DNA of 63,985 nucleotides, filler included, from Reclinomonas americana ATCC 50394 (lineage: Eukaryota), in the NCBI GenBank assembly GCA_048213135.1. It is 7 parts of 4 records of this genome, joined end to end, with 100 filler letters (N's around TTAATTAATTAA, not from the genome) between each part and the next. Parts side by side here need not be neighbours in the genome. Positions count along the whole stretch, not along the records: positions 16,346 to 23,443 come from PS015439.1; positions 23,544 to 29,587 come from PS015439.1; 5 more parts are not named here. The stretch is one strand, 5' to 3'. Positions 2,664-30,184 of the stretch are shown piece after piece; positions within the stretch are counted from its first letter, which is position 1; each line of letters begins with the position of its first letter. The notes below the pieces were generated by a model. The model was not told the origin of the DNA, searched no databases, and saw nothing but the letters and a program-made list of their open reading frames with translations. The position numbers and the translations under genes are program-made.

Positions 2664-2735
2664 AGCCGACTGTGGGGGTCGAACCCACGACCTTCTCCTT
2701 AGGAGGGAGACTCGCTACCACTGCGACAAGCCGGC
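2664..2735 (-). tRNA. tRNA-Arg(CCT), intronless
   Basis: Reverse complement folds as GCCGGCT TG TCGC AGTGGTA GCGA G TCTCC CT-CCT-AA GGAGA AGGTC GTGGG TTCGACC CCCAC AGTCGGC T. All four stems pair; anticodon CCT. Confidence 0.95.
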
Positions 2736-3161: not shown

Positions 3162-6100
3162 AGGAGAGGAGAGGAGAGAGAGAGGATNNNNNNNNNNNNN
3201 NNNNNNNNNNNNNNNNNNNNNNNNNNNNNNNNNNNNNNNNNNNNNNNNNNNNNNNNNNNNNNNNNNNNNNNNNNNNNNNNNNNNNNNNNNNNNNNNNNNN
3301 NNNNNNNNNNNNNNNNNNNNNNNNNNNNNNNNNNNNNNNNNNNNNNNNNNNNNNNNNNNNNNNNNNNNNNNNNNNNNNNNNNNNNNNNNNNNNNNNNNNN
3401 NNNNNNNNNNNNNNNNNNNNNNNNNNNNNNNNNNNNNNNNNNNNNNNNNNNNNNNNNNNNNNNNNNNNNNNNNNNNNNNNNNNNNNNNNNNNNNNNNNNN
3501 NNNNNNNNNNNNNNNNNNNNNNNNNNNNNNNNNNNNNNNNNNNNNNNNNNNNNNNNNNNNNNNNNNNNNNNNNNNNNNNNNNNNNNNNNNNNNNNNNNNN
3601 NNNNNNNNNNNNNNNNNNNNNNNNNNNNNNNNNNNNNNNNNNNNNNNNNNNNNNNNNNNNNNNNNNNNNNNNNNNNNNNNNNNNNNNNNNNNNNNNNNNN
3701 NNNNNNNNNNNNNNNNNNNNNNNNNNNNNNNNNNNNNNNNNNNNNNNNNNNNNNNNNNNNNNNNNNNNNNNNNNNNNNNNNNNNNNNNNNNNNNNNNNNN
3801 NNNNNNNNNNNNNNNNNNNNNNNNNNNNNNNNNNNNNNNNNNNNNNNNNNNNNNNNNNNNNNNNNNNNNNNNNNNNNNNNNNNNNNNNNNNNNNNNNNNN
3901 NNNNNNNNNNNNNNNNNNNNNNNNNNNNNNNNNNNNNNNNNNNNNNNNNNNNNNNNNNNNNNNNNNNNNNNNNNNNNNNNNNNNNNNNNNNNNNNNNNNN
4001 NNNNNNNNNNNNNNNNNNNNNNNNNNNNNNNNNNNNNNNNNNNNNNNNNNNNNNNNNNNNNNNNNNNNNNNNNNNNNNNNNNNNTGCTTCCCCTCCTGAG
4101 AGAGAGAGAGGCAGAGAAGCAACAACAACAAGAAGCTGCAGTCTTGCATCCGTTGCATTTCTCATTCCACTCTCTTCTTCCCTTCCCCTCTCTGCAGTCA
4201 CTGGAGACCTCCCGGCCCCTGTTCGTGCTCCACGATGGCCCACCATACGCCAATGGAAAGCTGCACACGGGGCATGCTGTGAACAAAATCCTGAAGGATA
4301 TCGTCGTGCGACATCGCCTCATGCGCGGCGATCGAGTGAGGTGTGAGGAGAGTGCTGCAAAGAGTGGCAGGCATGCAGCTGACTGAAGTGTCTTCTCATG
4401 CGACAGCTGGGTGTGCGGGTGGGACTGCCACGGCCTGCCCATCGAACTCAAGGCCATCAACGAGCGCAGCAGTCGGCAAATGAGCCCACTGGAGATTCGC
4501 TCCAGTGCGCGGGCGTTTGCGGGGGAGGCCATCAAGGATCAGGCGGCGGCATTTGCCGCGTGGGGCCTCCTCACCGACTGGAACGACGTGTACTTGACCA
4601 TGGATCCGGCGTATGAGGCCATGCAGCTGGATGTGTTTTGGCAAATGTTCAAGACCGGCTACTTGCATCGCGGGGTGCGGCCGGTCTATTGGAGTCCGAG
4701 TTCGCGCACGGCTCTGGCCGAGGCGGTGAGTCTCGAGGAATATAGAGAGTGTGTGTGTGTGGTCTTTCCCACTCACTTGTCGGCGTCGACACAGGAACTC
4801 GAGTACACGGATCAGCACGTGTCGACGTCGGCATATGTGTCGACACCAGTGGTGCGTGCGGACGGCGAGGCTGCTGCTGGTAGGTCAAGTGTCGGTGTAC
4901 ACATTCAATGCCATCCATCAACTGCATTCTTCCCCCGGCGCAGCTCTTCTCTCCCGCTTCCCGGGCCTGCAGATGGCTGTGTGGACCACCACACCGTGGA
5001 CCCTGCCGTCGAATCAGGTTTGCCGAGTGTCGCGCCACTGCTTCACCCACTTCCATTTCGGTTGATGACTGGTGCTTCTGCAGGCCATGTGTGTGCATCC
5101 GGAGCACGAATACTGCGTGGTGACAACTCCATCGTCGAATGTGCCACTGTTGTTGGGGGTCGAGCTGGTGGATCACGTCGCCAAGAGCGTGTTTGGTGGT
5201 GCCCCACTGCAAGTGGTCAGCGAGCCCATTTCCGGCACGCATCTGGCGAACCACATGTGGTGTGCGCACCCGTATTTCAGCACCACTGAAGTTACATGCT
5301 CATACACACGCAGGGGGTGTTTCAATTTCCCCTCCGTCTCACTCACGTACAAATTAGGTGCCGGTCTTGTCGGGGACGCACGTTACGAGTGACAGCGGCA
5401 CGGGCATTGTGCACACGGCGCCGGCGCACGGTCACGACGATTATGAAGTATGCAAGCAGTACGGAATTGAGCCGACGATGCGAGGTGTGGAGTTGAACGT
5501 GTCCACAATCTTGTGCCCTCATCTCATCCTCTCCGTTGCAGTGGACGATCTCGGTCTCTTCTGTCGTGGTACGGCTCCCGAGCTGGACGGCTTGGCCGTT
5601 CTGAAGGAGGGCAATGCGGCAGTGATTGAGAAGCTCAAGGCCGACGGACGCATTCTTGCCACCATGCCGTACCAGCATCGCTACCCCTACGACTGGCGGA
5701 CAAAGAAGCCCGTCATCATTCGTTCGACTCGTCAGTGGTTTGCACGCCTCTCTGATGGCTCTTCTGCGGGCGGACTGAAGGTGTGGACGGGGAGAGCGTG
5801 TGCGGATGATGTTGCGTTGCGTGCGCTCACGCGCTGCTTGTGTGTGTGTGTGCAGGATGCGGCCTCTCGTGTCGTGGAAGATGTGCAGTTTGTACCGCCG
5901 TCGTCTCGTGCACGTCTCGCTGGCATGCTTGGATCACGCTCTGAGTGGTGCATCTCACGTCAACGAGTGTGGGGTCTCCCCATTCCCGCATTTTACCACA
6001 AGGACACTGGTTTGTGCAGAAGCTGACGATGCGATTCCCCGACGCACACTCACTCTCAAATGCACTCTTTGCAGATGAGGTTCTGCTCGACGAATCAACC

Positions 6101-6242: not shown

Positions 6243-6287
<45 letters not shown>

Positions 6288-8065
6288 CGCAGCTGCCGAG
6301 TTTGAAAAAGGCAAAGACACACTCGATGTGTGGTTCGACTCTGGCACCTCGTGGGCCGGCGTTCTGCGCCAGCGCAACATTTTCCCGGCCGATGTGTACC
6401 TGGAGGGCAGCGATCAGCATCGCGGCTGGTTCCAGTCATCGTTGCTTACGTCGGGTGCGTTCCAGCAAGATCACGAAAAACCACGCAGATGGTGGTTGAC
6501 TCACTTTTTCTTCCCATGTCGCATGTCAGTGGCGTGCTCCGGTCAAGCTCCGTATCGTCGCCTGGTGACGCACGGTTTTGTGGTGGACTCGGAGGGGCGA
6601 AAGATGAGCAAGAGCATCGGCAACATTGTGGAGCCGCACGTTATTGTGCAAAAGTATTCGGCCGATGTGCTGCGCGGTTGGGTGGCATCGTCGGATTACA
6701 CGGCTGATGTGCCACTCGGCGAGCAGCTGCTCAGTTGCGTTCCCCATGATGTGCATTCTTTTGCTGCTGCTACCACAATACTCACGGCATCGTCTCGCAG
6801 AGCATGTGGCAGAGGGTGTGCGTAAAGTACGCAACACGTGCCGTTTCCTGCTCGGCAATCTGCACGACTTTGTGCCCCTGGCAGTCGAGGAGCCCATCAC
6901 TCATCCACACGATCGCTACATGTTGCACCTGCTGGGTGACTTTGCGCGGCACGTGCAAACCGAGTACGACGAGTATGCCTTTTCACGAGGTTTTGTACTC
7001 TGCAGTTGCCCAGCCTCACGTTGCACGTCGTCGTCGTCACTCATGAGGTGCGCGCAACAGTGTGGACGCGAGTCTCCATTTTTTCGGCGTCGACTCTCTC
7101 CGCATTCTACCTCGACCTGATCAAAGACCGCCTGTACGCCGACGCGCCACAAAGTCACTCGCGACGGAGCGCGCAGCGCGTGTGTGCCAAAGTTACGTGT
7201 TTGTCATATCGGTGTCATCACTGATGCCGTGGACCTCACCGCGGTGACCGACAGATTCTCGAGTACCTCACCAAGTCTGTAGCCCCACTGCTGCCGCACT
7301 TGGCCGAGGACGTGTACCAGCACTTGCCAGCCGGGGCACAGTGGTCAAAGAAGAGTGTCGAGTCCGTCTTCGAAACAGGCTGGATTGATGCGGTTTGTAA
7401 TTCCTGCAGTGGTCCTCTTGCCTTTGCCGTCTCGCTCACCCGCGACGCAGCCATCCGAGTGGACACTGGACGCCGACATGCTTGCCAAGTGGACCGCGGC
7501 ACTGCGACTGCGCGACGCCTTTTACACTGTCGTCGATGTGGCGCGCAAGAAGAAGTTGCGCTGTGTGCGATTTGTGAGTGCATCACTTTTTCGTGAGTCT
7601 TACTTTTGCATGCACAGATTCGTGGGCAACTCACTCGAGTGCATCATGGTGATTGCGGCATCGGATGCAGCCATTCTCGCCGAACTGAAGCTACTCGCCT
7701 CTGAGGTGAATCTGGCCGATGCCGCACTTGTCTCGTCGGTGGAGTTTGCGACAGAGCCGGCACTGACTGGCGAGTATGTGGCATCGATTCCGTGGGCGGC
7801 CGACGCGACTGGTTCGTTTCCATTTGTGTTGTCGTGATTGCGACGGTTGCCGATGTTCACGAGTGCACTCGCAGTGTCGGTTGCTCTCACTCGCTCGACA
7901 AAGCACAAGTGCCCGCGCTGCTGGAAGCATGTGGCAGTCAAGGGTGTGGCATATACAGTTCTCGCCGCAGGTCACTCTCTCCAGTCCACTCATTCTCCTT
8001 TCTATTTCACAGAGAACGAGCTGTGCGGACGCTGTGATGATGTGATGCGCTCGTGGAACCAGTGA
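2852..8065 (+). CDS. IARS2: Isoleucyl-tRNA synthetase, mitochondrial/bacterial type (about 20 exons)
   Basis: Spliced product has an Arg-rich presequence (MWRHLQRWRRLFS), [95 protein letters not shown] and a C-terminal Zn finger (KCPRCWK...LCGRC). An N gap at 3188-4084 lies in an intron-like region. Confidence 0.95.
6246..6284. repeat. Intronic (CT)n microsatellite
   Basis: Pure CT dinucleotide run inside an IleRS intron. Similar runs occur at 175-192 and 3130-3157. Confidence 0.95.
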
Positions 8066-10390: not shown

Positions 10391-11472
10391 TCACGACTTG
10401 CCGAGGAAGCTGTACGGCGTGAGACCGCGGTTGAACCTCAAGTACGCGAACGCGAGGATGCACGCCACGCCAACGCCAGCCACCACAGCCTCAGTCCGCA
10501 TGCTGTTCATGTCCAAGCCGGGTTTCAGGCAGCTCACGGCCGGATCCGACGGCTGCATGCGAGTCAGACAGCAGACGCCCTCGTTGCTACCTCCCCACAG
10601 AGGATCGACTGCTCACCGAGTAATAGACACGCACGACCTTGCCTTCGGGAAACTCGTCAGCATCCTCCTGCCGGTTGCTCTCGCCCGCACGCACCGCCTC
10701 GCCCACATACACCACACCATCGACAACGTACTCGTACTGCACATTGGCACGGTGCTCACTGTAGAGGCCGGGTTAGTCGACGAGAGGCGACCTGCAGTGG
10801 GCCACACACACACACCACACGCAACATGATTCGTCGGCCGACGGCCTCGTACTTGAAGCTGGCGGTGATGATTCCCGGAGCCGACGGCCACGATGAGGAG
10901 CGCGTCGACTCAAACACGCGATACGCCGGGTACACCAGCAGGCCGAGTCCCGCAATCAGCCAGAAGAGGTTGGTCGACTCCTCCACGCCATAGTCCTGCA
11001 CACCACAAAGAGAGTGAGTGTGAGTGAGTGGGAACGATTGCTGTGAATGCAAGTGTGAGAGCGCACCCAGTCCAGGCGGCGAGCGTTGATGGCCTCCATG
11101 CTCTCAATGTCACCGCGCTTGTGGTGCGGCTTGGCCTCCACAATGCCCTTGTCACTGCATGCATGCATGCATGTGTGTGAGTGCGAGTGCGTGAAATGCG
11201 AGAGCATCTCTCTCTCATTGCTTGCACGCAACTCTTGCGGCTTTCCGCTGGACGCCGGTGGCGATGATGGTGGTGGAGGCTCAGTGGAGAAGGTGCGCAC
11301 AGCAGCAAAGGTGCCGCGCGGAGCGGTCGCGCAGAGACGAGCACCGACTGTGTGCATCATCAGTGAGCGGCCGCACACACACACACACGCTCTATTGTGT
11401 GTTGGCACATGAGAGAGGGACGCAACGCGACAGCAGACTGCCTGCAGAACGCACTCGCAGCGCTCCCAGCAT
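10391..11472 (-). CDS. DUF3592-like two-TM membrane protein with mitochondrial-like presequence (6 exons)
   Basis: MLGALRVRSAGSLLSLGARLCATAPRGTFAAVRTFST, then a TM (LFWLIAGLGLLVYPAY), SSSWPSAPGII, ANVQYEYVVDGVVYVG, FPEGKVVRVYYSPSDPAVSCL and a second TM. TGA at 10391-10393. Confidence 0.7.
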
Positions 11473-12924: not shown

Positions 12925-14011
12925 ATGGTGAGCAGGCGCGCGCCTGACGATTGCGCATAAGAGAGTGTGTGTGTGTCAGAGTGATGGCCCCGCATGTTTC
13001 TGTCCTCTTTTCCTCTGCACACGCACGCACGCTCTGCTCAACCGCCGCTGACTGTGTTGCGTTGCAGGGTATGTCCGGAGTTGAGGCCAACCAGGAGTGC
13101 GTGTCGCAGTTCGCTCGTGTGCGCGCACGAGAGCTCGCCTACGTCATTTTCACTGTGCACATGGAGAACAACCAGGTGAGAGAAGAGAGCGAGAGGAGAG
13201 ACAGTGTGAGCATGTGTGTGGGGGAGGGAGAGAGAGTGAGCGGTGGAGAGAGAGAGAGGCGTGTGTGTCAACAGACATGCTCGGAGAAAAGCACACGCAC
13301 TCTTTTCTCGTTTTTTTGCACGTCGGGGGTCGCGTGTGTTGCGTTGCGTCTCTCGCTGGCCTCTGTGCGCGTTCTCTGACGACTTGTTCACGTCTTGGTG
13401 TGTGAGTTTTTTGGCGTGTGATGTCGCGTCTGGCGGGCCCTCCTCGGTTATTTGTGTGTGCGTGTCTGCCTTTGTGTGTGTGTGTGTTAGCATCAGACAG
13501 TAGTGTCCGCCTTTTTTGTCTTGTCGACGAATGATGAGGGTGTTGGATTTTGTTTGTATGTGAAGCAAGGACATGGCCTCAATATACTCACTCGCTTCTC
13601 CTCTGCAGCCCAAGGACATCCGCCCGGTTGCCGAGGGTGTGCAGGGCGAGTCGCCCGAGGCCACCTGGGACGAGTTCGTCGCCCAGCTGCCGCGCAATGA
13701 GGGCCGCTTTGGCGTGTTTGACCTGCGCAAGCAGACGGCCGATGGTCGTCAGGTGGAGAAGGTCATCTTCGTCACATGGTGAGTCCGGCTCTTCATTCAC
13801 TCGCACTGTTGTCCGCCCCGTATCGCTCATGTTGTCGTCTCGACTGTATAGGGCGCCGTCAGAGGCGTCGGTGCGCAACCGCATGATTGTCGCCTCGTCG
13901 CAGGATGCACTGAAGGCCAAGTTCGACGCTGCTGGCATGCCGCACGTGCAGGCCAACGACGCCGACGAGTTGGTGTACTCGACGGTGGTCGCCAAGGTCA
14001 TCCGCGAGTAA
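12925..14011 (+). CDS. Actin-depolymerizing factor / cofilin
   Basis: ATG-only first exon, then GMSGVEANQEC...YVIF, WDEFVAQLPRNEGRFGVFD, KVIFVTW|APSEASVRNRMIVASSQDALK, VQANDADEL. TAA at 14009-14011. Confidence 0.9.
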
Positions 14012-14219: not shown

Positions 14220-16058
14220 CTATCCGTCGACGGGCAGCGAGCCGTCGAACCACCACGTCTTGACGAGGCGATCGTCGCTGCATGAGGCGAGTTCGGAGCG
14301 CTTCGAGTGGAACACGGCTGAATACACGATGCCGGTGTGACCCGACAGGCGTTGCAGCGGGGTCTGTCCGCCGGAGCGCAGATCCCACACGTACACATGC
14401 CCGTCCTCGCTGCCGCCAAACACCAAGTCGGCGGGACCAAAGGTGGCGCGCACAAAGTTCTTTGACGTGTTCTGGTGTCCCTTCAGTCGCCGCACTGGTC
14501 GTGACTGCCAAAGCGCGCGAGTGTGCGTGGGTGAGCGCTCAACTGTCAGCAATGGCAAGAGAGTGTGTGATGGCGCAACTGTACGAATATCCCACACGCG
14601 ATTCGAGTTGTCCTTGCTGGAGGAGAGCACCGTGTTGCCGAGCGAATTCATGTCGACCGATGTCACCTCGCCCAAGTGAGCCGTGTACGAGTGGATGCAC
14701 ATGGCGCTGGTGATGTCCCAGAAGCGAATGGTGGAGTCCTTGGAGCCAGAGATGATGAGGTTGCCGTGCGGGTTGAAAATGACCTTGCACACCGAGCCCG
14801 TGTGCCCGATGAGATGCTTCACCAACTCGCCCGTCTGAATGTCAAACAGCTTGACGGTCTTGTCGTAGCCGCCAGTCGCAAAATGTCTCTGAGAAGGGAA
14901 GAAGGATGTGAGGAGAGATCAACGAGTAACACAGTTGTTTCGGCGCACACACACACACCTCCGAAGGATGCACGCGAACACAATACACGTCGGTCTCATG
15001 ACACGCATGCGTCACCACCGAGCTCAGCTTTGGTGACGACGAGTCCGTGTCCGCGAGTGACCACACCTGCACCGCAACATTGTCGGAAATCACCTCTCGA
15101 ACAGCCCACCAAGTGCGCCTCTCACCTTGACGTGCCCGTCGGCACTTGCACTGGCCAACAGCGACCCGGTGCGTGGGGCCACAGACAGGTCCCACACGCG
15201 CGACTCGTGCCCCTCGAGCACAAGGCGACAGTCGCCGCTGGCCGTGTCCCACAGGCGCACCGTGTTGTCGCTGGAGCCCGACGCCAGCAGATTGCCGTGC
15301 TCGCCCACAAACTCCACACACTTGACATTGGCGCGATGGCCGACCATCGAGTGCCGCACGCTGTTGGGAATCACCGGGCACGAGTAGTCCTCCAACAAGC
15401 TGACAGAACGAGAACATGAGCAAGTGAGGACAGAGAGAGGGAGAGTGAGGGATGAACGGCGAACCTCGATACTTGCGGAATGGTCTTCGGGTGGTACTTG
15501 GACGAGGAGACCTGGTAAGCCACGGCCTGTTTCAGCAATTGCACCAGTCGTGCGGGAGGCACTTGCTTGGACGACGCTGCACGCCCATTGCATCCTCACA
15601 GTCAGTCTGAGTGGAGATCATCGCCTCGCGACACACTCGTTCACGCACCGACAGTGAGATCCTCGCTCTCATAATCGAGCATCGACTCGAACTGCTCGAC
15701 GAGCGCCTCACGCGACGATCCCAACACGCCATCCCACTGCCGCCGGAACACTGGTGAATCAGCCACGCTCTTGCACGTGAGCAAGTAGCACAGCTCCTTG
15801 AACTCGTTGGGGTACTGCTCGGCCGTCTCCAGTGGCTTCAGCTTGCGATTGAGAATGCCCAGCGCCTTCAGATGCTCGCCCGACTCCACCAGCTCCAAGA
15901 ACTGCTGCTTGTAGATGCAGTAGAGGAAGCTCTTTTCGTTGTGGAAGCGTGCCTGTTACGTCAACGACGAGCTGTCAGCAGCAGCGAGCGAAGCGGAGAA
16001 GCGCACTACGAGCACAGCACCTTGTTGATGTTGCGCTCCACCTCTGCCCAGTCACCCT
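14220..16058 (-). CDS. CTLH + WD40-repeat protein (WDR47/WDR26/SMU1-like architecture), 5' end missing at the gap
   Basis: GDWAEVE...FLYCIYKQQFLELVE...ELCYLL, PARLVQLLKQAVAYQ, then about 7 GH...WD repeats (for example GHRANVKCVEF...SDNTVRLWD and GHTGSVCKV...DSTIRFWD). Confidence 0.8.
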
Positions 16059-16289
16059 CTGTGACGCGTGGAAAGCAGAGGAGGTCAGCTCAGAGAGGGC
16101 CACTCTTGCACAGCGCTCTGCCTTTCTCGAGGATGAATGCTGCGCTTTCAGTCTGATCTCCTCTTCCTTCTTCGTCTTGTTGTTGATCCTTCTTCCTCTC
16201 TACTCCTCTTCTTCGCCTTCTCCTTCTTCTTCTTCTTCTTCTTCTNNNNNNNNNNNNNNNNNNNNNNNNNNNNNNNNNNNNNNNNNNNN

Positions 16290-16301
16290 TTAATTAATTA
16301 A
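16290..16301. other. Artificial scaffolding linker TTAATTAATTAA (also at 23488, 29632, 39374, 50061, 59573)
   Basis: Identical palindromic 12-mer of overlapping TAA stops, centred in a 100-nt N spacer, six times. Confidence 0.95.
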
Positions 16302-16345
16302 NNNNNNNNNNNNNNNNNNNNNNNNNNNNNNNNNNNNNNNNNNNN

Positions 16346-19300
16346 GTGCCAATGGCGGCTCCCAGGGCCAACGGGGGGACATACGTGCTGGTGGACAGCA
16401 CTGGCGCAGTCGGTATCACATTGCCTGTGGACAAAGAAGCACAAATGAGAACCCTGCAAGCCACGAAACATTGAATGCAGTTCACGCAACTCTCGTTGAT
16501 GATGAATGTAGATGAGCGCGAGCCACCGGCTCCGTCCGACACAGTGAGCTCCACTTCAAGACCATTGCCGCTGAGTCCGTTGACATTGGAGAGCAAGCTA
16601 CTACCAACAACGTAAAAGTCGGACAGATGTGTGCCACCGGTGACTGTGTAAACAAGTGTCTGCGCAGAATTCGCATCAGTGGCAGCCAGTGTGCCGATTG
16701 TGCCGCCCAAGGCCAGTGGTGGCGCATACAGAGAGGTCGAGAGTGTTGGTGCACTCGGGGGCACATTGCCTGCAATCAAGGGACAAGCATTCTGCGAGAG
16801 TGACATCGCGTCTTGGCACAGACTTCAATCACGCAACTCTCGCTGATCGAGAACGTCGTACTGTTGATACCTCCGGCGCCATCGCTGACTTGCACCGTCA
16901 CCTGCAGACTGTTTCCTGTCAAGCCGGCAACATTCGACAGCAGACTTGTGCCGCTGATGCTGAACGACGCCTGATTGCTCCCGCCGGTGATGGAATACGA
17001 GAGCGTCTGTCCCGTATTCGGATCGGACGACGAGAGGGTGCCAATGACACCGTTGAGTGCCAGAGGCGGCGCGTACGTCGAGGGTGACAGGGATGGAGCA
17101 GATGGTGGCACATTAACTGTGTACAGCAGCACCTCATTAGTACCAGCGTTAATGCATTCTGGAAGCACGAAACCGTACCTTCAGTAATGGTAAATGTGCT
17201 GCTGGAGGTGCCACCTGCACCATCACTGACGGTCACAACCACTTGCAAATTGATTCCACTCAGTCCCGCCACATTGGAGCGCAGGTCGGAGGCGACAATG
17301 ACAAACGAGCTTGCGTTGACGCCTCCGGTAATGGTGAACGTCAACGCTTGACCCGTATTGGGGTCTGTGGAGGACAGGGCGCCGATGACGCCGTTGAACG
17401 GAAGCGGCGGTGTGAATGAGAGCGCAGACAGCCCCGGCGCAGTGGGATTCACGTTGGCTGTGCGGTCGTGACAGACAATCAAATCAGCAAACAAAAATGG
17501 GACGTGCAGTCAGAGAGCAGGGTGCATCAGACCTTCGCCAATGACGAATGTGCTGACGTTGGTGCCACCGGCGCCATCCGACACAGTGACCTCCACCGAC
17601 AGATTGTTGCCGGTGAGTCCGGCAACACTGCTTCGGAGGCTGGAACCACTGATGTTGAACAGTGCCTGATGCGCACCACCAGTGATCGTAAACGTCAACG
17701 ACTGCCCGCTGTTGACGTCGGTGGATGACAGGATGCCAATGACTCCATTCGCGGTCAGTGGGGGAATGTACGACGAGGACGAGAGGATGGGTGCGGTGGG
17801 TGGCACGTTGACTGTGTGCGGGAGAAGCATGAGCAACAGCATGCACGACTTGTGCAAGCAAGACACGAGAGCGGCAGCGTGCCACCAACCTTCGCTGATC
17901 AGGAATCTGGCATTTGTCAGTCCGCCGAATCCATCGCTGACTTCGACAATAACCTCCAAATTGTTGCCGGCGAGACCAGCCACATTGGATCGCAAGTCTG
18001 AGCCACTGATGTTGAAGAGCGCCGAGTCGGCTCCTCCCAGAATGCTGAATGTCAGCGTCTGGCCGACGTTCGGGTCCGTGGCCGACAACGTGCCAATGAC
18101 GCCGTTGAGCGCCAGAGGTGGAACGTAAAGCACAGTCGACAACGTGGGCACAGACGGCGGTAAGTTCGCTGTGTTTCACGGAACAAAGTCAGGCAGGCGC
18201 AACAACCAGGAGATACAAAGAGTGAGTGGAATGCAACGCAACAGCTGCCGATTGTAAATGTTGCGGTGTTTGTGCCACCAGCACCGTCGCTAACTTGCAC
18301 AATGACCACCAAGTTGGAGCCGGAGAGGCCGGCAACGTCGGAGCGAAGATTGGACCCGATGATGTTAAACGAGGCTTGATCCGCACCACCCACAATGCTG
18401 AACGTCAAAACCTGCCCAGTGTTTGCGTCTGTCGAGGACAAGACGCCGATAACGTCATTGAAGGCCAGCGGTGGGTTGTACGCAGTCGACGAAATCGTCG
18501 GAGCAGACGGAGGCACATTGGCTGCGCACCACAGACACTAAGTCAGCCACGCGACTGCCATTTAAATGAAAACCTATGCAAACCTTCGCTGATGGTGAAC
18601 GTAGATGTGTTGGTGCCACCGGCTCCATCGCTCACTTGCACAATCACCTGCAGCGCGTTGCCACTCAAACCGGCCACATTGGATCGCAAGTCGGTGCCGC
18701 TGATGTTGAACGATGCCTGACTGGCGCCACCAACAATCGTGTACGTCAGCGTCTGCCCAGTGTTGGGATCAGTGGACGACAGGGTGCCGACAACGCCATC
18801 CATGGCCAGTGGGGGACTGTACGTCGAGGTGGACAGAGTCGGTGGCGTTGGCACAACATTGGCTGTCACAAAGGCAACAGAGTGTGCGAATGAGCGGGTG
18901 CAAAAAAGGAAGAAGCAAACGAACAAGCCACCACACTGACCTTCGCTGATGGTGAATGTGGACGTGTTGGTGCCACCTGCTCCATCGCTCACTTGCACAA
19001 TCACTTGCAGGCTGTTGCCGGTGAGACCAGCAACATTCGATCGCAAGCTGCTGCCGCTGATGTTGAACGATCCCATGCTGGTGCCGCCCGTGATGGTGTA
19101 CGTCAGCGTCTGGCCCGTGTTGGCGTCTGTCGAGGCGAGAGTGCCAATGACGCCATTTGTGGCGAGTGGCGGGATGTAAGTGCTGCTTGACAGTGTGGGC
19201 GCCGTCGGATTCACATTAGCTACGCAAGAGACAAGAACGATGGGTTAACGAGAAACTAGAAGGACGAGCGCAGTGCGCGTCGCTCCAACCTTCGTTGATG

Positions 19301-22300
19301 AGGAATGTCGCTGTGTTGGTGCCGCCTGCTCCATCGTCCACTTGCACAAGCACTTGGAGGTTGTTGCCCGTCAGCCCACCCACACTGGAGCGCAAATCCG
19401 TTCCACTGATGTTGAAGGATGACTGATGAGTGCCGCCAACAATCGAGTATGTCAACGTCTGGCCAGTGTTCGGGTCCGACGAAACGAGAGTGCCGATGAC
19501 GCCGTTGGCCGCCAATGGTGGCGCGTACACACTGGATGACAACGTTGGAATTGACGGCACCACATTGGCTGATTGGGAGATACAGTGAGTACGTCAGCCA
19601 CACAATGATTGACGCCTTCAGAGAGAGACACACCTTCGTCGATGACAAATGTTGCAGTTGTCACACCACCAGCACCGTCGCTGACTTGCACAATCACTTG
19701 CAGCGCGTTGCCCGTCAGGCCAGCGACATTCGACCGCAGACTCGAGCCGCTGATGTTGAACGACGCTTGATCCGCACCGCCCACAACAGTGTACGACAGC
19801 ACCTGACCAGTATTCACATCGGTCGACGACAGCATACCCACGACGCCATTCAGCGCCAAGGGCGGAATGTATGTGGACGTAGACAAGGTCGGTGCCGTGG
19901 GATTCACGTTCGCTGCACGAAACGGGAGTCAGCAAATAGCGCTGGCAGTCGTATCTACAGATACACACTTACCCTCGCTGATACTAAATGTTGTGCTATT
20001 CACTCCTCCGGCTCCGTCACTCACTTGCACAATCACTTGCAGGCTGTTACCCGAGAGAGCAGCAACGTGCGATTCCAAGATATTCCCATTGATCGAAAAC
20101 AGCGCTTGGTCGGCACCACCAATGATGGAAAACGTCAGCGTCTGGCCAGTGTTGGGGTCACTCGACGACAAGGTGCCAACATCGTCACCCATAGCAAGTG
20201 GCGGAATGTATGTCGTTGATGACAGAGTCGGTGCAGTTGGCGTGACATTGACTGCATGCGATGCAACAGAGTGAGGGCGAGAGTGGGGCCCAGCAGACTG
20301 CTTGCATAACATAGGATGCAAACCTTCGCTGATGGTGAACGTGGATGTGTTGATGCCACCGGCTCCATCGCTCACTTGCACAATCACTTGCAGTCCGTTG
20401 CCACTCAAACCAGCCACATTGGATCGCAAGTCGGTGCCGCTGATGTTGAAAGATGCCTGATTGGTACCACCAACAATCGTGTACGTCAGTGTCTGGCCAG
20501 TGTTGGGATCAGTGGACGACAGTGTGCCGACAACGCCATTCATGGCGAGTGGTGGAGCGTACGTCGAGGTGGATAGAGTCGGCGGCGTCGGCACAACATT
20601 GGCTGTAATGAAGATAATAGAGTGTGCGACTGAGCGGGTGCAAAAGGGAAGAAGCGAAAGAACAAGCCGCCACACGGACCTTCGCTGATCGTGAATGTGG
20701 AACTCGCCGTGCCACCTGCTCCATCGCTCACCTGCACAATCACTTGCAGGCTGTTACCGGTGAGTCCTGCCACATTCGATCGCAAGCTGCTGCCGCTAAT
20801 GTTGAACGATCCCATACTGGTGCCGCCCGTGATGGTGTACGTCAGCGTCTGACCCGTGTTGGCGTCCGTCGAGGCGAGAGTGCCAATGACGCCATTTGTG
20901 GCGAGTGGTGGGGTGTAAGTGCTGCTTGACAGAGTGGGTGCCGTCGGATACACATTGGCTACGCAAGAGACAAGAGCGATGGGTCAGTGAGGACAAGAGA
21001 GACGAGCGCAGTGCGAGCCAGTCCAACCTTCGTTGACGAGGAATGTCGCAGTGTTGGTGCCGCCGGCTCCATCGTCGACTGTGACGATCACTTGGAGGTT
21101 GTTGCCCGTGAGATTCGACACTGCTGTCACGAGGCTGTTCCCACCGCTGATTGAAAACAGTGACTGGTCGGTGCCGCCAGAGACATAGTAAGTCAGCGAC
21201 TGCCCCGAGTTTGGGTCTGTCGACGACAGCATGCCAATGACGCCGCCAAGTGCCAGTGGCGGCGCATATGTCGACGACGACAGCGTTGGTGCGGTTGGTG
21301 TCACGTTGACTGCAGCCACGGTGGTGAACAACAACGCGGATAAACAAATAAGGAACAGGATCGACTGACGCAACGCTCATCAATGTCGAATACGAAAGAG
21401 TTCGTGCCACCAGAGCTGGCCGTGACAGTGATCTCAACCTGCAAGTTGTTTCCGACAAGGCCCGCGACGTTGGAACGCAGGTCCGTGCCACTAATGTTGA
21501 AGGATGCTTGGTTGGCGCCACCAGTGATCGAGAATGTGAGCGTGTCACCAGCCACGGCAGGTGTTGCGGAGAGAGTGCCAATCACGCCATTCAGAGCAAG
21601 TGGCGGCGTGTACAGCGTTGTCGACAAGACCGGGACCGTCGGACTCATGTTGGCTGTGAGAGGAGAGTCAGCGCACCAAGGGCGATCTCTTCAAAAATCA
21701 TCTGCATCACGCAAACCTTCCGAAATGTTGAACGTGGACGAGCGAGTTCCTCCAGCTCCGTCGCTGACAGTGACAATCACTTGCAGTCCGTTACCGGTGA
21801 GGCCAGACACACTGGAGCGCAGATCCGTGCCGTTGATGTTGAATGATGCCGAATTGGTACCGCCGGTGATGGAGAAGGTCAGTGTCTGACCGGTGTTGAC
21901 ATCGGTCGACGCCAGAGTGCCGATTACTCCGTTCAGCGCGAGCGGCGCCACGTACAAGTTCGTGGAGAGTGTCGGCGCAGTGGGTACCACGTTGGCTGTG
22001 CTCATAGACATATGTGATGAAGTGGATTAACAGTGAATAAATGCATCGCCTTACCTTCAGATATGTTAAACGTTGTCGTGTTCACACCACCGGCACCGTC
22101 GCTCACTTGCACAATCACTTGCAGGCTGTTGCCAGTGAGGCCTGCCACATTGGATCGCAGGTTGGTGCCGCTGATGCTGAATGAGGCAGAGTTGGTGCCA
22201 CCAACAATGGAAAACACAAGTGTCTGGCCCGTGTTCGGGTCTGTCGACGACAATGTGCCAATCACACCATTCAAAGCGAGAGGCGGGGTGTACGTGGTAG

Positions 22301-25300
22301 ATGACAGAGCCGGAGCAGTGGGGACCACATTGGCTGTGCAGAGCGGCGTCAGGGACTGAGACAGAGAAACACAGTGCGAAGCACAGGATAGCACGCTCAC
22401 CTTCGCTGATGGTGAATGTCGTGCTCGCCGTGCCGCCTGCTCCATCACTCACTTGCACAATCACTTGAAGGTTGTTACCCGTCAACCCAGCCACATTCGA
22501 TCGCAAACTCGTGCCACTGATGTTGAAAGAAGCTGAGTTGGTGCCGCCCGTGATCGTGTAAGTCAGCGTCTGGCCAGTGTTGGGGTCCGTAGACGACAGC
22601 GTTCCAATTGTTCCGTTGAGAACGCGTGGCGGAGTGTAGGTCGAGGAGGACAGCGTCGGAGCACTCGGCGCAACATTAGCTGCAAAATGGTGAGGACGAA
22701 ACCAATACTCGCTGCGTAAAAAAGGCTCAAGGAGCAGAGCGTACACGCACCTTCGTTGATGGTGAAGGTCGAGCTCGCGGTCAGAGTTCCATCGCTCACT
22801 TGCACAATCACTTGCAGACTATTGCCAGTGAGGCCAGCAACGCTGGATCGCAAACTCGTGCCACTGATGTTGAATGACGCTTGATTCGTGCCGCCCGTGA
22901 TTGTGTACGTCAGAGTCTGACCCGTGTTGGGATCCGTCGATGACAGGGTGCCGATCACTCCGTTCGAGGCAAGAGGAGGAGTGTATGTCGACGATGAGAG
23001 CGTCGGTGCAGTCGGTGCAACATTGACTGTATAGTGAGGCGACAAGTAAGGAAAGTGCTAAAAACGACAGCGTAGGGAGAATACTACACACCTTCGCTGA
23101 TGGTGAATGTTGCCGAGCGGTTTCCCACTCCATCGCTCACGCGCACAATCACTTGCAGATTATTGCCTGTCAGGCCGGCCACATTGGATCGCAGACTCGT
23201 GCCACTGATGTTGAACGACGCCGAATTGGTGCCACCGGTGATTGTATACGTCAGCGTCTGGCCAGTGTTCGGATCGGTCGACGCCAGAGTGCCGATCACT
23301 CCATTCGAGGCAAGTGGCGGTGTATACGTTGATGGAGACAATGTCGGCACAGTCGGCAGAACATTGGCTGCAGCAGCAACGAGAATGAGTAAGGCGACAG
23401 GCTAGCCTCGAAAAATTGCAGAAAACAGACCCTCGTTGATCGTNNNNNNNNNNNNNNNNNNNNNNNNNNNNNNNNNNNNNNNNNNNNTTAATTAATTAAN
23501 NNNNNNNNNNNNNNNNNNNNNNNNNNNNNNNNNNNNNNNNNNNCGTATACGTCAGTGTCTGGCCGGTGTTGGCATCTGTGGACGCAAGCGTGCCGATCAC
23601 TCCGTTGGAGGCAAGTGGTGGCGTGTAAGTCGATGACGACAGGGTGGGTGCAGTTGGTGCGACATTGGCTGTGACATCAACACAGAATGATTCAGCCACG
23701 CATGCGTGCATGTCAGCTCTCCCAAAAAGTACTCACCCTCGTTGATGGTGAATGTCGTACTTGCCGTTCCGCCCGCTCCATCGCTCACTTGCACAATCAC
23801 TTGTAGATTGTTGCCTGTGAGGCCAGCCACATTCGATCGCAAACTGGTGCCGCTGATGTTGAATGATCCCATGCTTGTCCCGCCCGTAATCGTGTACGTC
23901 AGCGTCTGACCGGTGTTGGGATCCGTCGACGCAAGCGTGCCGATCACTCCGTTGGAGGCAAGAGGAGGAGTGTATGTTGACGAGGACAGCGTTGGTGCGG
24001 TTGGAATCACATTTGCTAATGCCACCAACCATGTGAGTCGCATAACAATAGGATCAAGCTGGCCAGGCAGAATGGCACACCTTCGCTGATTGTAAATGTT
24101 GTGGTCGCCGTCAGGGATCCATCACTCACTTGCACTATTACTTGCAGGTTGTTGCCCGTCAGCCCAGCTACATTCGACCGCACGCTACTGCCACTGATGT
24201 TGAACGATGCCTGATTCGTGCCACCCGTGATCGTGTAGGTCAGTGTCTGACCCGTATTGGGGTCCGTCGACGCCAGAGTGCCGATCACTCCATTCGAGGC
24301 AAGCGGTGGCACATACGTATTACTCGACAAGGTGGGCGCGGTCGGCGCAACATTGACTACATCATAAGCTCCGTGAGGCGTAGAAGTGACTGGTTTCGAC
24401 GACACGCACAACAGCAAACCTTCGCTTATGGTGAACGTGGTGTTTGCTGTGCCACCAGCCCCGTCGCTCACTTGCACAATGACCTGAAGGTTGTTGCCCG
24501 TGAGGCCAGCAATATTGGATCGCAAGCTGGTGCCGCCGATGGTGAATTTGGTCTGATTCGTGCCACCGGTGATGGTGTATGTCAGTGTTTGACCCGTATT
24601 GGGGTCTGTCGATGCCAGCGTGCCGATCACTCCATTCAAGGCCAGTGGCGGAGTGTACGTCGATGATGACAGCGTTGGTGCAGTCGGCGCAACGTTGACT
24701 TAAGACAATGCAGGATTAATCACGACGCATGCTACTCTGTCGCAGAAACTTCGTGAAACACAACGCACCTTCGCTGATGGTGAACGTTGAGCTTGCTGTG
24801 CCTCCCGCTCCATCGCTCACTTGCACAATTACTTGCAGATTGTTGCCAGTGAGACCGGCCACATTCGATCGCAGACTCGTACCACTGATGTTAAAGGATC
24901 CCATATTCGTGCCACCGGTGATGGTGTACGTCAGCGTCTGACCCGTGTTGACATCGGTTGACGCCAGAGTGCCAATGACGCCATTGGAGGCGAGTGGAGA
25001 AGTGTACGTGCTGCTCGACAGCGTCGGTGCAGTCGGCGCGACATTTGCTGCAACAAGAGCGAAGGAATAGGTTCAGCGAGCAGCAGGACCGAGTGCTGGA
25101 AGTGTGCACCGACCTTCGCTGATGGTGAACGTGGTGCTTGCCGTCCCACCTGCTCCGTCGCTCACTTGCACAATCACTTGCAAGCTATTGCCAGTTAGGC
25201 CAGCCACACTCGATCGCAAGCTCGTGCCACTGATGTTGAAGGAGGCCGAGTTGGTGCCACCGGTGATGGTGTACGTCAGGGTCTGACCCGTGTTGGGGTC

Positions 25301-28300
25301 GGTCGACGATAGTGTGCCAATCACTCCGTTCAAGGCTAGAGGCGGTGTGTAGGTGTTGCTGGACAATGTCGGTGCAATTGGAATCACATTAGCTGATGTC
25401 ATCAACCGTGAGCCACAAGATAAGTCAATCGAGGGCAAACGAATAGCATCAAACCTTCGCTAATTGTAAACGTTGTGGTCGCCGTCAGTGTGCCGTCACT
25501 GACTCGCACAGTCACTTGCAGGTTGTTGCCCGTGAGGCCAGCCACACTAGAACGCAAACTCGTGCCGCTGATGTTGAACGACGCCGAGTTGGTACCGCCA
25601 GTAATGGTATACGTTAGTGTCTGGCCAGTGTTTGGGTCGGTTGACGAGAGCGTGCCGATCACTCCGTTCGAGGCAAGCGGGGGAGTATACGTCGACGACG
25701 ACAGTGCCGGTGCTGTCGGTGCAACATTGACTGCGAGATGTTGCTGAATTGTAAGCGTACAGCAGTGAATCAAACGGATGACTTCAACGAACGCCAAACC
25801 TTCGCTTATGGTGAAAGTCGCGCTTGCCGTTCCGCCCGCTCCATCACTGACTTGCACGATAACTTGCAGATTGTTCCCCGTGAGACCTGCCACATTTGAT
25901 CGCAGGCTGGTGCCACTAATGTTGAATGACGCCGAGCTGGTGCCACCGGTGATTGTGTACGTCAGGGTCTGACCCGTGTTGACATCTGTCGACGCCAGAG
26001 TGCCGATCACTCCATTAGAGGCAAGCGGCGGAGTGTATGTCGATGAAGACAGGGTCGGCGCAGTCGGTGCGACATTGGCTGTAACATCGGTCGTGTGAGT
26101 CACACGATGAAAGGATTGAGAGAGTCCAGAGGAAAACAACACACTGACCTTCGCTGATGAGAAAGGTTGACGTCGCCGTCAGAGTTCCATCACTGACTCG
26201 CACAATCACTTGCAATCCGTTGCCAGTAAGACCGGCCACACTTGATCGCAGACTGGTGCCACTGATGTTGAAGGAGGCTTGATTCGTGCCACCGGTGATT
26301 GTGTACGTCAGTGTCTGACCAGTGTTGGGATCGGTTGATGACAAGGTGCCAATCACTCCGTTCGTGGCGAGAGGTGGAGTGTACGTGTTGCTCGACAGCG
26401 CGGGCGCTGTCGGCGCAACGTTGACTGCGATTCGGCGATGATGTCAGCGACCACTGTCGGCAAGCAATTGCTTCAGAGACATTGCAGAGACGTACAAACC
26501 TTCGCTGATGGTGAACGTGGCACTAGCCGTGCCTCCTGCCCCGTCACTCACTTGCACGATGACTTGCAGGTTGTTGCCAGTGAGACCTGCCACATTGGAT
26601 CGCAAGCTAGTGCCGCTGATGTTGAACGACGCCGAGTTGGTACCGCCAGTGATCGTGTACGTCAGTGTCTGACCCGTGTTGGGATCGGTTGACGAGAGCG
26701 TGCCGATCACTCCGTTCGAGACAAGCGGGGGAGTATACGTGCTACTTGACAGCATCGGTACCGTCGGTGCAACATTGACTGCGTGATGCGGGTGAGTTAT
26801 CAGCGCACAACGGTGAAACGATTGGATGACTTCAACGAAAATACCTTCGCTGATGGTGAATGTGGCACTCGCAGTCCCTCCCGCGCCATCACTCACTTGT
26901 ACGATGACTTGTAGATTGTTGCCCGTCAACCCAGCCACATTCGATCGCAAACTCGTGCCGCTAATGTTGAATGAAGCCGAGTTGGTGCCACCGGTGATTG
27001 TGTACGTCAGCGTCTGACCCGTGTTGACATCAGTCGACGCCAAAGTGCCTATCACGCCGTTCAGCGCGAGCGGGGAAGTATACGTCGACGATGACAGTGT
27101 CGGTGCAGTCGGCGCGACATTGGCTGTAACACCGAACGTGTGAGTACACGATAAGTGGATTGAGAGAGTCCAGAGGAAAACAACACACTGACCTTCGTTG
27201 ATGAGAAAGGTTGTCGTCGCTGTCAGAGTTCCATCACTGACCCGCACAATCACTTGCAAGCCGTTGCCCGTGAGGCCAGCAACACTCGATCGCAAACTGG
27301 TGCCACTGATGTTGAATGATGCCTGATTCGTGCCACCCGTGATGGTATACGTCAGTGTCTGGCCAGTGTTGGGGTCGGTTGACGAGAGAGTGCCAATGAC
27401 TCCATTCAAGGCGAGCGGAGGTGTGTAGGTGCTGCTTGACAGCGTCGGTGCAGTCGGCGCAACATTGACTGACGGACAAGACGGGGAATCAGACGGCAAG
27501 TGATGCAACCAAAGACGTAGAAGTGCTCAAACCTTCGCTGATAGTGAAAGTCGAGGTCGCCGTCAACGATCCGTCACTGACTCGCACAATCACTTGCAGG
27601 TTGTTACCTGTCAGTCCGGCCACATTAGATCGCAGACTCGTGCCGCTGATGTTGAACGACGCCGAGTTCGTGCCACCCGTGATGGTGTACGTCAGTGTCT
27701 GACCCGTGTTGACATCGGTTGACGCCAGAGTGCCAATCGCTCCATTCAAGGCGAGCGGAGGTGTGTAAGTGCTGCTCGACAGCGTCGGTGCCGTCGGCGC
27801 AACATTGACTGACGGACAAGGCTGGATTCAGACGGCTAGCGATGCAACTGAAGACTGACATGGACGCAAACCTTCGCTAATGCTGAACGTCGTGCTTGCC
27901 GTGCCTCCCGCGCCATCGCTCACTTGTACGATGACTTGCAAGTTGTTGCCAGTGAGGCCAGCCACATTCGATCGCAAGCTGGTTCCGCTGATATTAAACG
28001 ATGCCGAGTTGGTGCCGCCCGTGATGGTATACGTCAGAGTCTGACCGGTGTTCACATCCGTCGACGCCAGCGTCCCAATCACGCCGTTCAAAGCGAGCGG
28101 CGGGGTGTACGTGTTGCTGGTGAGAGTTGGCGCAGTCGGTGCCACATTCGCTGCGGGGTGGCACAATGTTAGGACACAAAAACGGATGATGGGTCCCAAC
28201 AATTACCGCAAGCACACACCTTCGTTGATTGTAAACGTCGAGGTCACAGTCACAAATCCGTCCAGGACCCGCACAACTACTTGCAGTCCATTGCCAGTGA

Positions 28301-29536
28301 GGCCAGCCACGTTTGATCGCAAGCTCGTGCCGCTGATGTTGAAGGAGGTTTGATTCGTGCCACCAACAATGGAAAATGTCAGCGTCTGGCCAGTGTTGGG
28401 ATCCGTCGACGACAGCGTGCCGATCACTCCGTTCAAGGCCAGTGGCGGTATGTACGTGTTATTTGACAGAGCCGGTGCCGTCGGCGTAACATTGGCTGCG
28501 TGATGCCACTGAGTTGTCAGCGCACGCAAGTGAATGGCTATTGAAATCGACGACAGATACCACACCTTCGCTGATGGTGAACGTGGCACTCGATGTGCCT
28601 CCCGCTCCATCGCTCACTTGCACAGTTACTTGCAGGCTGTTGCCAGTGAGACCAGCCACATTCGATCGCAAGCTGGTTCCGCTGATGTTGAACGACGCCG
28701 AGTTGGCGCCGCCGGTGATCGTGTACGTCAGTGTCTGGCCCGTGTTCACGTCCGTCGAAGCCAGAGTGCCAATCACGCCGTTCAGCGCGAGTGGCGGAAT
28801 GTACGTGCTGCTCGACAGAGTTGGCGCAGTCGGCGCAACATTGGCTGACGGGGAGAGCGGTGAGTTTCACGACAAACGGTGCGAGGGGGCAGAGAAACAA
28901 CAACAAACTTTCGTTGATAGTGAAGGTTATGCTTGCTGTCAGTGTCCCGTCACTGACTCGCACAATCACTTGTAGGTTGTTGCCCGTGAGGCCAGCCACA
29001 TTCGACCGCAGACTCGTGCCGCTGATGTTAAACGACGCCGAGTTGGTGCCACCATTGATCGTGTACGTCAGCGTCTGACCAGTGTTGGGATCCGTCGACG
29101 ACAGTGTGCCAATTGTTCCGTTCAGGGCCAGAGGAGGAGTGTACGTCGACGAGGATAGAGTCGGTGCCGTCGGTGCAACATTGGCTGCCAACAGGAAATC
29201 ACCAGTGTCAGCCACAATAATCGGACTCAGCTCCTAAACGCATTTGGTGGGCCTGACCTTCGTTGATGAACCACGTCGTGCTTGCTGTACCACCAACACC
29301 GTCGCTCACTTGCACAGTCACTTGCAAGTTGTTGCCAGTGAGGCCTGAAACATTGGACCGCAAGCTCGTGCCGCTGACGTTGAACGACGAAGCATTCAAG
29401 CCACTGGTAATGGTATAGGTCAGCGTCTGGCCCGCATTGCTATCCGTCGACGACAGCGTGCCGATAATGCCATTTAAGGCTAGGGGCGGTATGTACGTCG
29501 TGCTTGACAGGGTCGGTGCAGCGGGGGCAAAGTTGG
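16346..29536 (-). CDS. Giant extracellular protein of tandem cadherin-like domains, one domain per exon; both ends missing
   Basis: 37 complete exons of 276/279/282 nt plus 3 partial pieces (for example 29258-29536, 28909-29184, 28566-28844 ... 16838-17116, 16491-16769). All 38 visible introns are phase 1, GT-AG, 59-78 nt. Consensus NVAPTAPTLSSSTYTPPLALNGVIGTLSSTDPNTGQTLTYTITGGTNSASFNISGTSLRSNVAGLTGNNLQVIVQVSDGAGGTASTTFTISE. No stops or frameshifts seen. Confidence 0.88.
16346..29536. repeat. Tandem exon+intron repeat array, unit about 345 bp
   Basis: Recurring exon DNA at about 340-355 bp spacing. Exons are conserved and introns mostly diverged. Confidence 0.95.
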
Positions 29537-30184
29537 CTACAATCACCAGAGGGTGAGGAAGACGCAAGCAAGCAAAGGAGAGTGAATNNNNNNNNNNNNN
29601 NNNNNNNNNNNNNNNNNNNNNNNNNNNNNNNTTAATTAATTAANNNNNNNNNNNNNNNNNNNNNNNNNNNNNNNNNNNNNNNNNNNNAAATTCAATCATT
29701 CATCGTTCATTGACTGTGTGTTGACGAAGATTCTCAAGCAAGGGAGGGGGGAAAGCTATGTCAAAAAACAAGGAGGAGTAGTACGCGGACCAAGATATAC
29801 ATACATGCGAGAAGGGGGGGTGGGTTGGATGGAGAAACTCTAACGGGGTGGCGGAAACAAGAGCAAGACATGACAACAACAACAGGAGAGGGAGGAGCGC
29901 GCGGCGCTGGGAAAATCAATACCCGCAGCCGACATACACAACAGCTGGGGAGGGACGGCGCGCAGGAGAATTCAGGCTCAGATGCACATGCACGCACGCG
30001 CACACAGCAAAGACACTTACAGGGCAGGTGGCGCGCGGCACAGACGCACACAGGATTTTTTCACCAAAGTACAGGAAAAATTATTCACAGGAGACACACC
30101 AAAGGGGGGAAAAGACTACGGAGTGGAGGCAGAGGGAAAGGAGAGCAGCGGCTCCTCTCCAACCAGCGGTAGCAGGCACGGGAA

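Follow-up and report, generated by a model that had tools for sequence, protein, structure and literature searches.

The stretch of DNA analysed here (the window) comprises 63,985 nucleotides (nt), filler included, of Reclinomonas americana ATCC 50394 (assembly GCA_048213135.1), and contains a tandem array of repeat-encoding exons together with other intron-containing genes. Taken as a whole, the data suggest that introns in this window use two forms of 5' splice site (donor). The main form follows exons that end in G. The second form has the almost invariant sequence GTTGCGT, follows exons that end in any other base, and is read here as the consensus of the main form displaced by one base into the intron, that is, as a shifted register. 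We assign this statement in its entirety a probability of roughly 0.6. Its parts differ in strength: the two donor classes, and the tie between class and last exon base, are very probably real, and the reading of GTTGCGT as a shift in register stands at about even odds. Throughout, the last exon base is -1, the first intron base is +1, and a slash marks the boundary between them.

The repeat array provides the clearest view of both forms. It encodes immunoglobulin/cadherin-like units on the minus strand (16346 to 29587), and a tblastn search with one translated unit as the query matched 39 units between 16345 and 29534, at a tandem period of ~345 nt. One unit corresponds to one exon in phase 1, starting two bases into a codon and ending one base into the next. 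The 37 units that no gap cuts are all open, with exon lengths of 276, 279 or 282 nt. They are separated by introns of 59-78 nt that end in AG (mostly CAG, with TAG in five and AAG in one). On this comparison between paralogues, the exons can be taken to fix the array junctions to the base without RNA data. The array is correspondingly strong as a guide to splice position and weak as a count of independent events.

Within the array, 38 donors are readable, all at one homologous codon position. A G at -1 precedes 33 of the 38, and 32 of these 33 also carry G at +5; the sole exception, at 26844, follows unit 8 and reads G/GTATTTT (26838 to 26844, minus strand). None of the 33 begins with GTTGCG. 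The remaining five donors follow a base other than G. Four of these are exactly GTTGCGT, all on the minus strand: A/GTTGCGT after unit 38 (16484 to 16490) and after unit 37 (16831 to 16837), each with the junction codon A/GC for Ser; T/GTTGCGT after unit 33 (18236 to 18242), with T/CG, also Ser; and C/GTTGCGT after unit 24 (21368 to 21374), with C/TC for Leu. At main-class donors of the array, the junction codon instead specifies Ala or Val (G/CN or G/TN). The fifth donor, A/GTTTGTT after unit 2 (28902 to 28908, minus strand), lacks the exon G but keeps +5G, and thus falls in the ordinary register. The 38th donor, G/GTCTGTT (GAGG/GTCTGT; 23424 to 23430, minus strand), ends the gap-cut unit 18 and adjoins the gap.

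These counts, and the sequences of the five donors that lack an exon G, had been put forward in the original prediction and were reproduced in full. Its exclusion of simple intron sliding also holds, as exon lengths are constant: each exon upstream of a GTTGCGT donor is 279 nt long, as in its paralogues, and the reading frame is unchanged. The four introns concerned measure 65, 74 and 68 nt, none divisible by three, and 66 nt. At face value, the share of GTTGCGT among donors without and with the exon G (4/5 vs 0/33) gives a Fisher p of 5/73815 = 6.8e-5, a figure that ignores kinship among the paralogues and therefore sets a ceiling on how strong the evidence can be. Two other array donors, at 27864-27871 and 21709-21716 (minus strand), read G/GTTTGCGT, equivalent to GTTGCGT with a T added, which places G at +5. 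Gain or loss of one T could therefore convert a donor from either class to the other. The same sequence, GTTTGCGT, occurs in 8 copies in the window and is preceded there by any base.

The association extends beyond the array, as the original prediction had supposed. On both strands of the window, GTTGCGT occurs 34 times, compared with 15.9 +/- 4.0 in shuffled sequence, and none of 100 shuffles reached 34. The base before these 34 copies is A in 13, T in 12, C in 9 and G in none. As GTT is preceded by G in 16% of all its occurrences in the window, the absence of G in 34 copies has a binomial p of 0.004; GTTGCG followed by A, C or G is preceded by G in 7 of 52 copies. By visual inspection, the 34 contexts have nothing in common after +7.

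Use of these copies as donors was assessed with a purpose-written dynamic-programming gene finder, which draws on codon usage and a matrix for acceptors and admits GT-AG introns 40-400 nt long. Run without any donor model, it called 14 of the 30 GTTGCGT copies outside the array as donors, compared with 108 of 8251 GT sites (1.3%); the next most frequently called heptamer reached 3 of 32. Among the 72 short introns outside the array that were called in this mode, a G at -1 precedes none of the 14 GTTGCGT donors and 28 of the 58 others (Fisher p=4.9e-4). An unsupervised three-component motif mixture recovered the two forms as GGTG.Gt (67%) and aGTTGCGT (29%), and array accuracy rose to 32/37 when this donor model was fed back into the finder. 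The resulting final set holds 84 introns of at most 130 nt outside the array. It consists of 18 introns with exact GTTGCGT donors, of which none follows G; 9 with a single mismatch (GTTTCGT in four, GTTGCGC in three, GTTACGT and GTTGAGT in one each), again none after G; 50 of the +5G class, 42 of them after G; and 7 others, two of them after G.

The relationship between the two forms becomes apparent when their sequences are aligned on the cleavage site. The main class (n=50) has G at -1 in 42 donors, G at +3 in 36, C or A at +4 in 25 and 13, and T at +6 in 32, giving the consensus G/GTGCGT; its commonest +3 to +6 sequence is GCGT (14/50). In the second class, GCGT lies at +4 to +7, one base deeper. 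Expressed as heptamers, GGTGCGT, cut after its first base, and GTTGCGT, cut before its first base, differ at base 2 only. The C at +5 is present in 26 of the 27 exact and variant donors of the second class; at the matching position, +4, the main class has C in 25 and A in 13 of 50. Exon and intron anchoring are also anticorrelated, -1G being present in 42/50 of the loose +5G donors vs 0/27 of the GTTGCGT type, a contrast that derives in part from a self-trained donor model. The eight main-register donors that lack -1G have a canonical-type start: GTGAGT in three, GTGCGT in two, GTGCGC in two and GTGTGC in one.

The classes are alike in branch motif and intron length. A branch motif, CT followed by C, G or A, then A, then C or T, lies 8-45 nt from the 3' end in 10/18 exact GTTGCGT introns, in 16/27 when variants are included, and in 30/50 main-class introns. 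In every class, its median distance from the 3' end is 18-20 nt and the median intron length is 68-70.5 nt. With motif, distance and length equal, nothing in these introns suggests a second spliceosome. Two candidate identities for the second class were considered and rejected. A U12-type class does not fit, as the donor GTTGCGT is not of the RTATCCTT type and the branch motif matches the main class in both rate and distance. An intron that starts with TT and is shifted by one base at both ends would need non-canonical ends on both sides.

The classes do differ in codon phase. Phase 2 is found in 11/18 exact GTTGCGT introns and in 9/50 of the main class (Fisher p=0.0017), and phase 0, which accounts for 26/50 of the main class, also separates them (Fisher p 0.012). 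A G at -2 is enriched in the second class (9/18 exact donors, and 11/27 with variants, vs 7/50 in the main class); this excess probably reflects the excess of phase 2, in which -2 is the first base of the codon.

Homology confirms, at the level of sequence comparison, one exact GTTGCGT donor and one near-variant outside the array. The exact donor lies in a gene for an isoleucyl-tRNA synthetase (tRNA, transfer RNA) of bacterial or organellar type, which occupies ~4.1-8.1 kilobases (kb) on the plus strand and has many short introns with donors of both classes. Here, a 67-nt intron (6734 to 6800, plus strand) opens with A/GTTGCGT. The pair 6734 and 6800 is alone among GT-AG pairs in giving the homologue's spacing of 11 residues from one conserved anchor to the other; other frame-compatible pairs leave 12 or 16 residues, or lose aligned residues. 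The near-variant, donor at 14579, begins a predicted 75-nt in-frame intron (14505 to 14579, minus strand) with A/GTTGCGC, one mismatch from the motif, in a WDR5/SWD3-like gene; this intron coincides with a 25-residue gap in the alignment with a WDR5 homologue. A control is provided by a main-class intron of the synthetase gene, 75 nt long with the donor G/GTGCGTT (6455 to 6529, plus strand), which corresponds to a 25-codon gap with respect to synthetase homologues. One further intron of 45 nt, in frame (5811 to 5855, plus strand), is predicted in the same gene with a T/GTTGCGT donor; it falls within a stretch that is missing from homologues, and this stretch is longer than the intron. That donor is part of a tandem of the motif, GTTGCGTTGCGT, which occurs at 5811-5822 and 13338-13349 (both plus strand) and offers two possible donors 5 nt apart.

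Whether the four array donors share a single origin was assessed from a maximum-likelihood tree of 37 exons, with the last six exon bases omitted. On this tree the GTTGCGT state changes four times, and well-supported branches force at least two changes. Grouping all four upstream exons as one clade is rejected by the approximately unbiased (AU) test (p=0.010). Ranked among all 666 intron pairs, the interiors of the four introns, with donor and acceptor trimmed, occupy percentiles 16-86; recognisable duplicate introns of the array have 0.75-0.90 identity. At least two origins of the GTTGCGT donors in the array are thus shown, and more than one origin is favoured. A mobile or introner-like intron family was also considered and rejected, as the four interiors resemble one another no more closely than random pairs do.

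These results bear directly on the original prediction, which proposed that loss of the exon G was coupled to a register switch in the intron, possibly more than once. The repeat phylogeny that it called for has now been built, with at least two switches forced and a single four-exon clade rejected. The coupling of GTTGCGT to a non-G exon end and the occurrence of more than one switch are upheld; loss of G as the direction of change, more than two origins, and pairing register as the mechanism are not established. The opposite case that it had named, descent from one duplicated ancestor with no wider association, is disfavoured both by rejection of the four-exon clade and by the absence of G before all 34 copies in the window.

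A mechanism consistent with these features can be proposed. The main form would need both the exon-terminal G and +5G, and would otherwise be loose about its consensus G/GTGCGT. The second form would serve exons ending in A, C or T and would be almost invariably GTTGCGT; its TGCGT lies one base further in, such that the intron +1G would fill the slot held by the exon G in the main form. Cleavage would remain at GT, leaving exon length and reading frame unchanged. Two features of a shifted register are found here: exon length and frame are kept, as seen in the four 279-nt exons and in the restoration of homologue spacing by the 6734-6800 intron, and the consensus element lies exactly one base further in, with GCGT at +4 to +7 in place of +3 to +6. 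Donors of the second form would lie mostly at sites where an exon-terminal G would alter the protein. This may be pictured as two fitness peaks. Where a terminal G is permitted, the donor would drift to the loose main form; where it is not, only the exact second motif would function. Such a landscape could also account for the absence of G at -1 of GTTGCGT, as an exon-terminal G would make hundreds of loose sequences functional and the donor would then drift off the exact motif. Register switch is an apt term for the geometry of the motif; as a pairing mechanism it is a prediction, and unproven.

Several observations weigh against the shifted-register reading or limit its support. The 33 G-preceded donors of the array include many recent duplicates, and hence provide few independent data points. 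Resolution of the exon tree is poor: 17 of its 34 inner branches have support below 80%, and units 24, 36 and 38 lie on long branches. The AU test does not reject a clade of units 24, 37 and 38 (p=0.34), a clade of units 37 and 38 (p=0.27) and, among downstream exons, a clade of units 25, 34 and 38 (p=0.46); three of the four array donors may have a single old origin. The results outside the array rest on 64 kb and on a purpose-written gene finder. In its donor-agnostic mode this finder recovered the exact position of only 25 of 37 array introns, and its errors were mostly extensions to the next GT in frame. The mixture was trained on the finder's own calls, making the p values for the final set (1.2e-7; 5e-14) partly circular. 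Changing -1 to G would change the protein or create a stop codon at 16/18 exact GTTGCGT donors and at 21/27 when variants are included. As 16/18 is about the expectation for any non-G coding position, the argument from coding constraint rests on the difference in phase.

Duplex predictions with the U1 small nuclear RNA (snRNA) weigh in the same direction. For the standard U1 5' end given in PMC4856993, from which that of this organism may differ, the mean is -0.91 kcal/mol for 22 GTTGCGT donors vs -6.56 kcal/mol for 81 +5G donors. The shifted register, with U1 C4 opposite +6, is the best fold in 6 of the 22, and pairing does not predict the absence of -1G under either a shifted or a bulged model. 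We infer that both forms are read by a single snRNA, in two different registers. Given the near absence of pairing between GTTGCGT and the standard U1 5' end, such a model would require either a U1 whose end complements GCG or a second reader. The near-invariance of the heptamer, its almost complete lack of standard-U1 pairing and the preference for C at +5 together suggest that the reader is a U1 with a 5' end complementing GCG, a second type of U1, or another factor that reads TGCGT.

Other explanations must be weighed against the shifted register. One possibility would be a bulged-U register, in which +1G lies opposite U1 C8, one U at +2/+3 is bulged, TGCGT pairs as in the main class, and the exon end is not shifted. 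Such a register is known for human 5' splice sites, with 68 predicted and 54 retained after curation in the accessible text of PMC4856993, and the intron base pairs that it predicts for GTTGCGT are those of the shift model. It would, however, gain a G:C pair from an exon G, making that base favoured or neutral, yet G precedes 0/34 copies and 0/27 called donors, and +1G is paired to C8 in only 1/22 best folds with standard U1. We consider this explanation unlikely. A separate reader of GTTGCGT, whether a second U1 variant, a minor-type snRNA or a sequence-specific protein, would make the one-base offset incidental. It would accommodate seven bases that are nearly invariant despite almost no predicted pairing to standard U1, as well as the preference for +5 C (26/27), which is unexpected from such pairing. 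The identical branch motif, distance and intron length of the two classes and the absence of a U12-type donor argue against it; the lack of an snRNA gene in the window by Rfam, a result silent on the rest of the genome, also counts against it to that extent. This explanation appears improbable.

It is also conceivable that there is no rule, that the four array donors were copied from one ancestral intron, and that the pattern in the window reflects chance or base composition. The three clades not rejected by the AU test and the poor resolution of the exon tree are compatible with this. The rejection of the four-unit clade (p=0.010), the differing -1 bases (A, A, T and C) and the unrelated interiors speak against it, as do the 30 copies outside the array, which never follow G and 14 of which were called as donors without a donor model, and the two donors, one exact and one variant, that homology confirms. 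An origin of this kind is very unlikely. Nor is it likely that the pattern is an artefact of gene modelling, with GTTGCGT sites unused and the true junctions nearby or the introns retained. The junctions are predicted from sequence rather than RNA, and the introns at 5811-5855 and 14505-14579 are in frame without a stop codon; an open frame alone is no proof of removal. Paralogous exons nevertheless set the array boundaries to the base, and three of the four intron lengths there are not divisible by three. Furthermore, homologues lack exactly the 25 codons of 14505-14579, and of the candidate pairs only 6734 and 6800 fits the homologues. An artefact is accordingly a highly improbable explanation, and the shifted register is retained as the preferred reading.

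Other features of the window place these donors in context. The window contains 23 runs of N. At 29588-29687, a gap consists of 44 N, a 12-letter spacer TTAATTAATTAA and a further 44 N, and the same layout is found at 16246-16345, at 23444-23543 and in five further places. The spacer TTAATTAATTAA has stop codons in all six frames, and the arrangement suggests that the window is a chain of contigs joined by an artificial spacer. The array is interrupted by the gaps at 16246-16345, 23444-23543 and 29588-29687; with three such cuts, more than 39 units are possible, and the array total may exceed that number. The Pfam match of one unit to Big_9 is weak (E=2.7e-4, below the curated cut-off). A scan of metagenomes with the repeat alignment found 42 loci with relatives of the repeat domain; identity was 31-62% in the best segment, and 31-48% for loci aligned along most of the unit. 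These loci were judged too distant to contain an orthologous array.

Outside the array, Pfam names were obtained for only 6 gene regions among 148 long open frames. The best matches of the synthetase exon used as query are 46-56% identical, with cyanobacteria, Naegleria, Acrasis and a green alga among those named. The WDR5/SWD3-like WD40 gene (14220-16243, minus strand) has a best match of 56%, and its named matches are mostly early-diverging fungi. No protein near-identical to the synthetase or WDR5-like exon was present in a collection of 5.8 billion proteins, which apparently does not include the proteome of this organism. An Rfam scan, which covered the window and not the rest of the genome, found no snRNA gene; its sole match in the window is a tRNA gene at 2664-2735 (minus strand, 63.8 bits). 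Many short introns contain short runs of (TG)n, (CT)n or (CATG)n, for example at 5830-5850 and 6246-6284 (plus strand) and at 10800-10815 (minus strand).

If RNA data confirm the predicted junctions, these introns would provide a natural system in which to study how the spliceosome chooses where to cut once the first recognition helix has moved, and would predict a specific and checkable state of the U1 5' end. For gene prediction in this organism, a donor model based on a single weight matrix would then mis-score about a quarter of introns. A broader proposal is that this lineage has a changed reader of the 5' splice site, in the form of a U1 5' end complementary to GCG-type donors or of a second U1 variant complementary to GTTGCGT, and that the register shifted by one base is a mainstream code for a fifth to a third of its introns, chosen according to whether the protein allows a terminal G. 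We advance this only tentatively and regard it as doubtful; if true, this would be the first genome with a shifted register as a major, selectable class and not a rare exception.

Among known splice-site systems, U12-type introns combine a donor of the RTATCCTT type with a branch site of the TCCTTRAY type close to the 3' end. The introns described here resemble them in having a second donor class, a long and near-invariant intron motif, and no reliance on an exon G. They differ in that the donor is not of the RTATCCTT type, and in that the branch motif and its distance are those of the main class.

The closest parallel is the shifted (+1) U1 register known from atypical 5' splice sites in human, where the whole set of base pairs between splice site and U1 is displaced by one position (PMC4856993). 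As in that register, cleavage in R. americana is predicted at GU, the terminal G does not come from the exon, and the conserved intron element lies one base deeper. The human non-canonical registers together account for a few thousand predicted sites in the accessible part of that source, unlike the present class, which makes up about a fifth to a third of called introns (18 exact and 9 variants of 84). The motif GUUGCGU, with its negligible predicted pairing to standard U1, is a further difference from the shifted register as described there, and is known here from sequence alone. The human register with a bulge at +2/+3 also shares features with these donors, namely a GUU start followed by a consensus-like element. 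A benefit from the exon G is predicted in the human case, as far as the same source describes it, and the opposite is found here; the human register is also rare (68 predicted).

A different comparison is offered by the two main kinds of 5' splice site, with anticorrelated potential for interaction with U5 loop 1 and the U6 ACAGA sequence, described by Parker et al. (bioRxiv 10.1101/2022.04.05.487178). Going by the accessible text of that report, exon-anchored and intron-anchored donors are alternatives with anticorrelated strengths both there and here, and the 8 ordinary-register donors without an exon G match the same pattern as cases of ordinary compensation. The intron-anchored class in R. 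americana departs from the pattern in that it is a near-invariant heptamer offset by one base, rather than an improved match in an unchanged register.

The main class, by comparison, has a known counterpart. A donor consensus of AG/GTGCGT is reported for Mamiellophyceae (Micromonas and Ostreococcus), and Irimia and Roy raised the possibility that snRNAs have changed to match a divergent 5' splice site (PMC3879977, PMC2483917). The main-class consensus here is likewise G/GTGCGT. The available text of those sources makes no mention of a GTTGCGT class, and places the branch motif 43-52 nt upstream of the acceptor, unlike the ~18-20 nt seen here. More widely, no description of GTTGCGT, GUUGCGU, GTTGCG or GUUGCG as a splice donor was found among the matches listed from the open-access literature, judged by title and abstract, and none of a class like GTTGCGT in the open-access text on shifted registers and GTGCGT donors.

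Taken in sum, the G/GTGCGT consensus and shifted registers are known, and GTTGCGT as a donor class is apparently new. Non-canonical U1 registers are regarded as rare exceptions that account for a few odd human splice sites. In R. americana, the donor offset by one base would appear instead as a regular and near-invariant class, tied to the last base of the exon and to codon phase.

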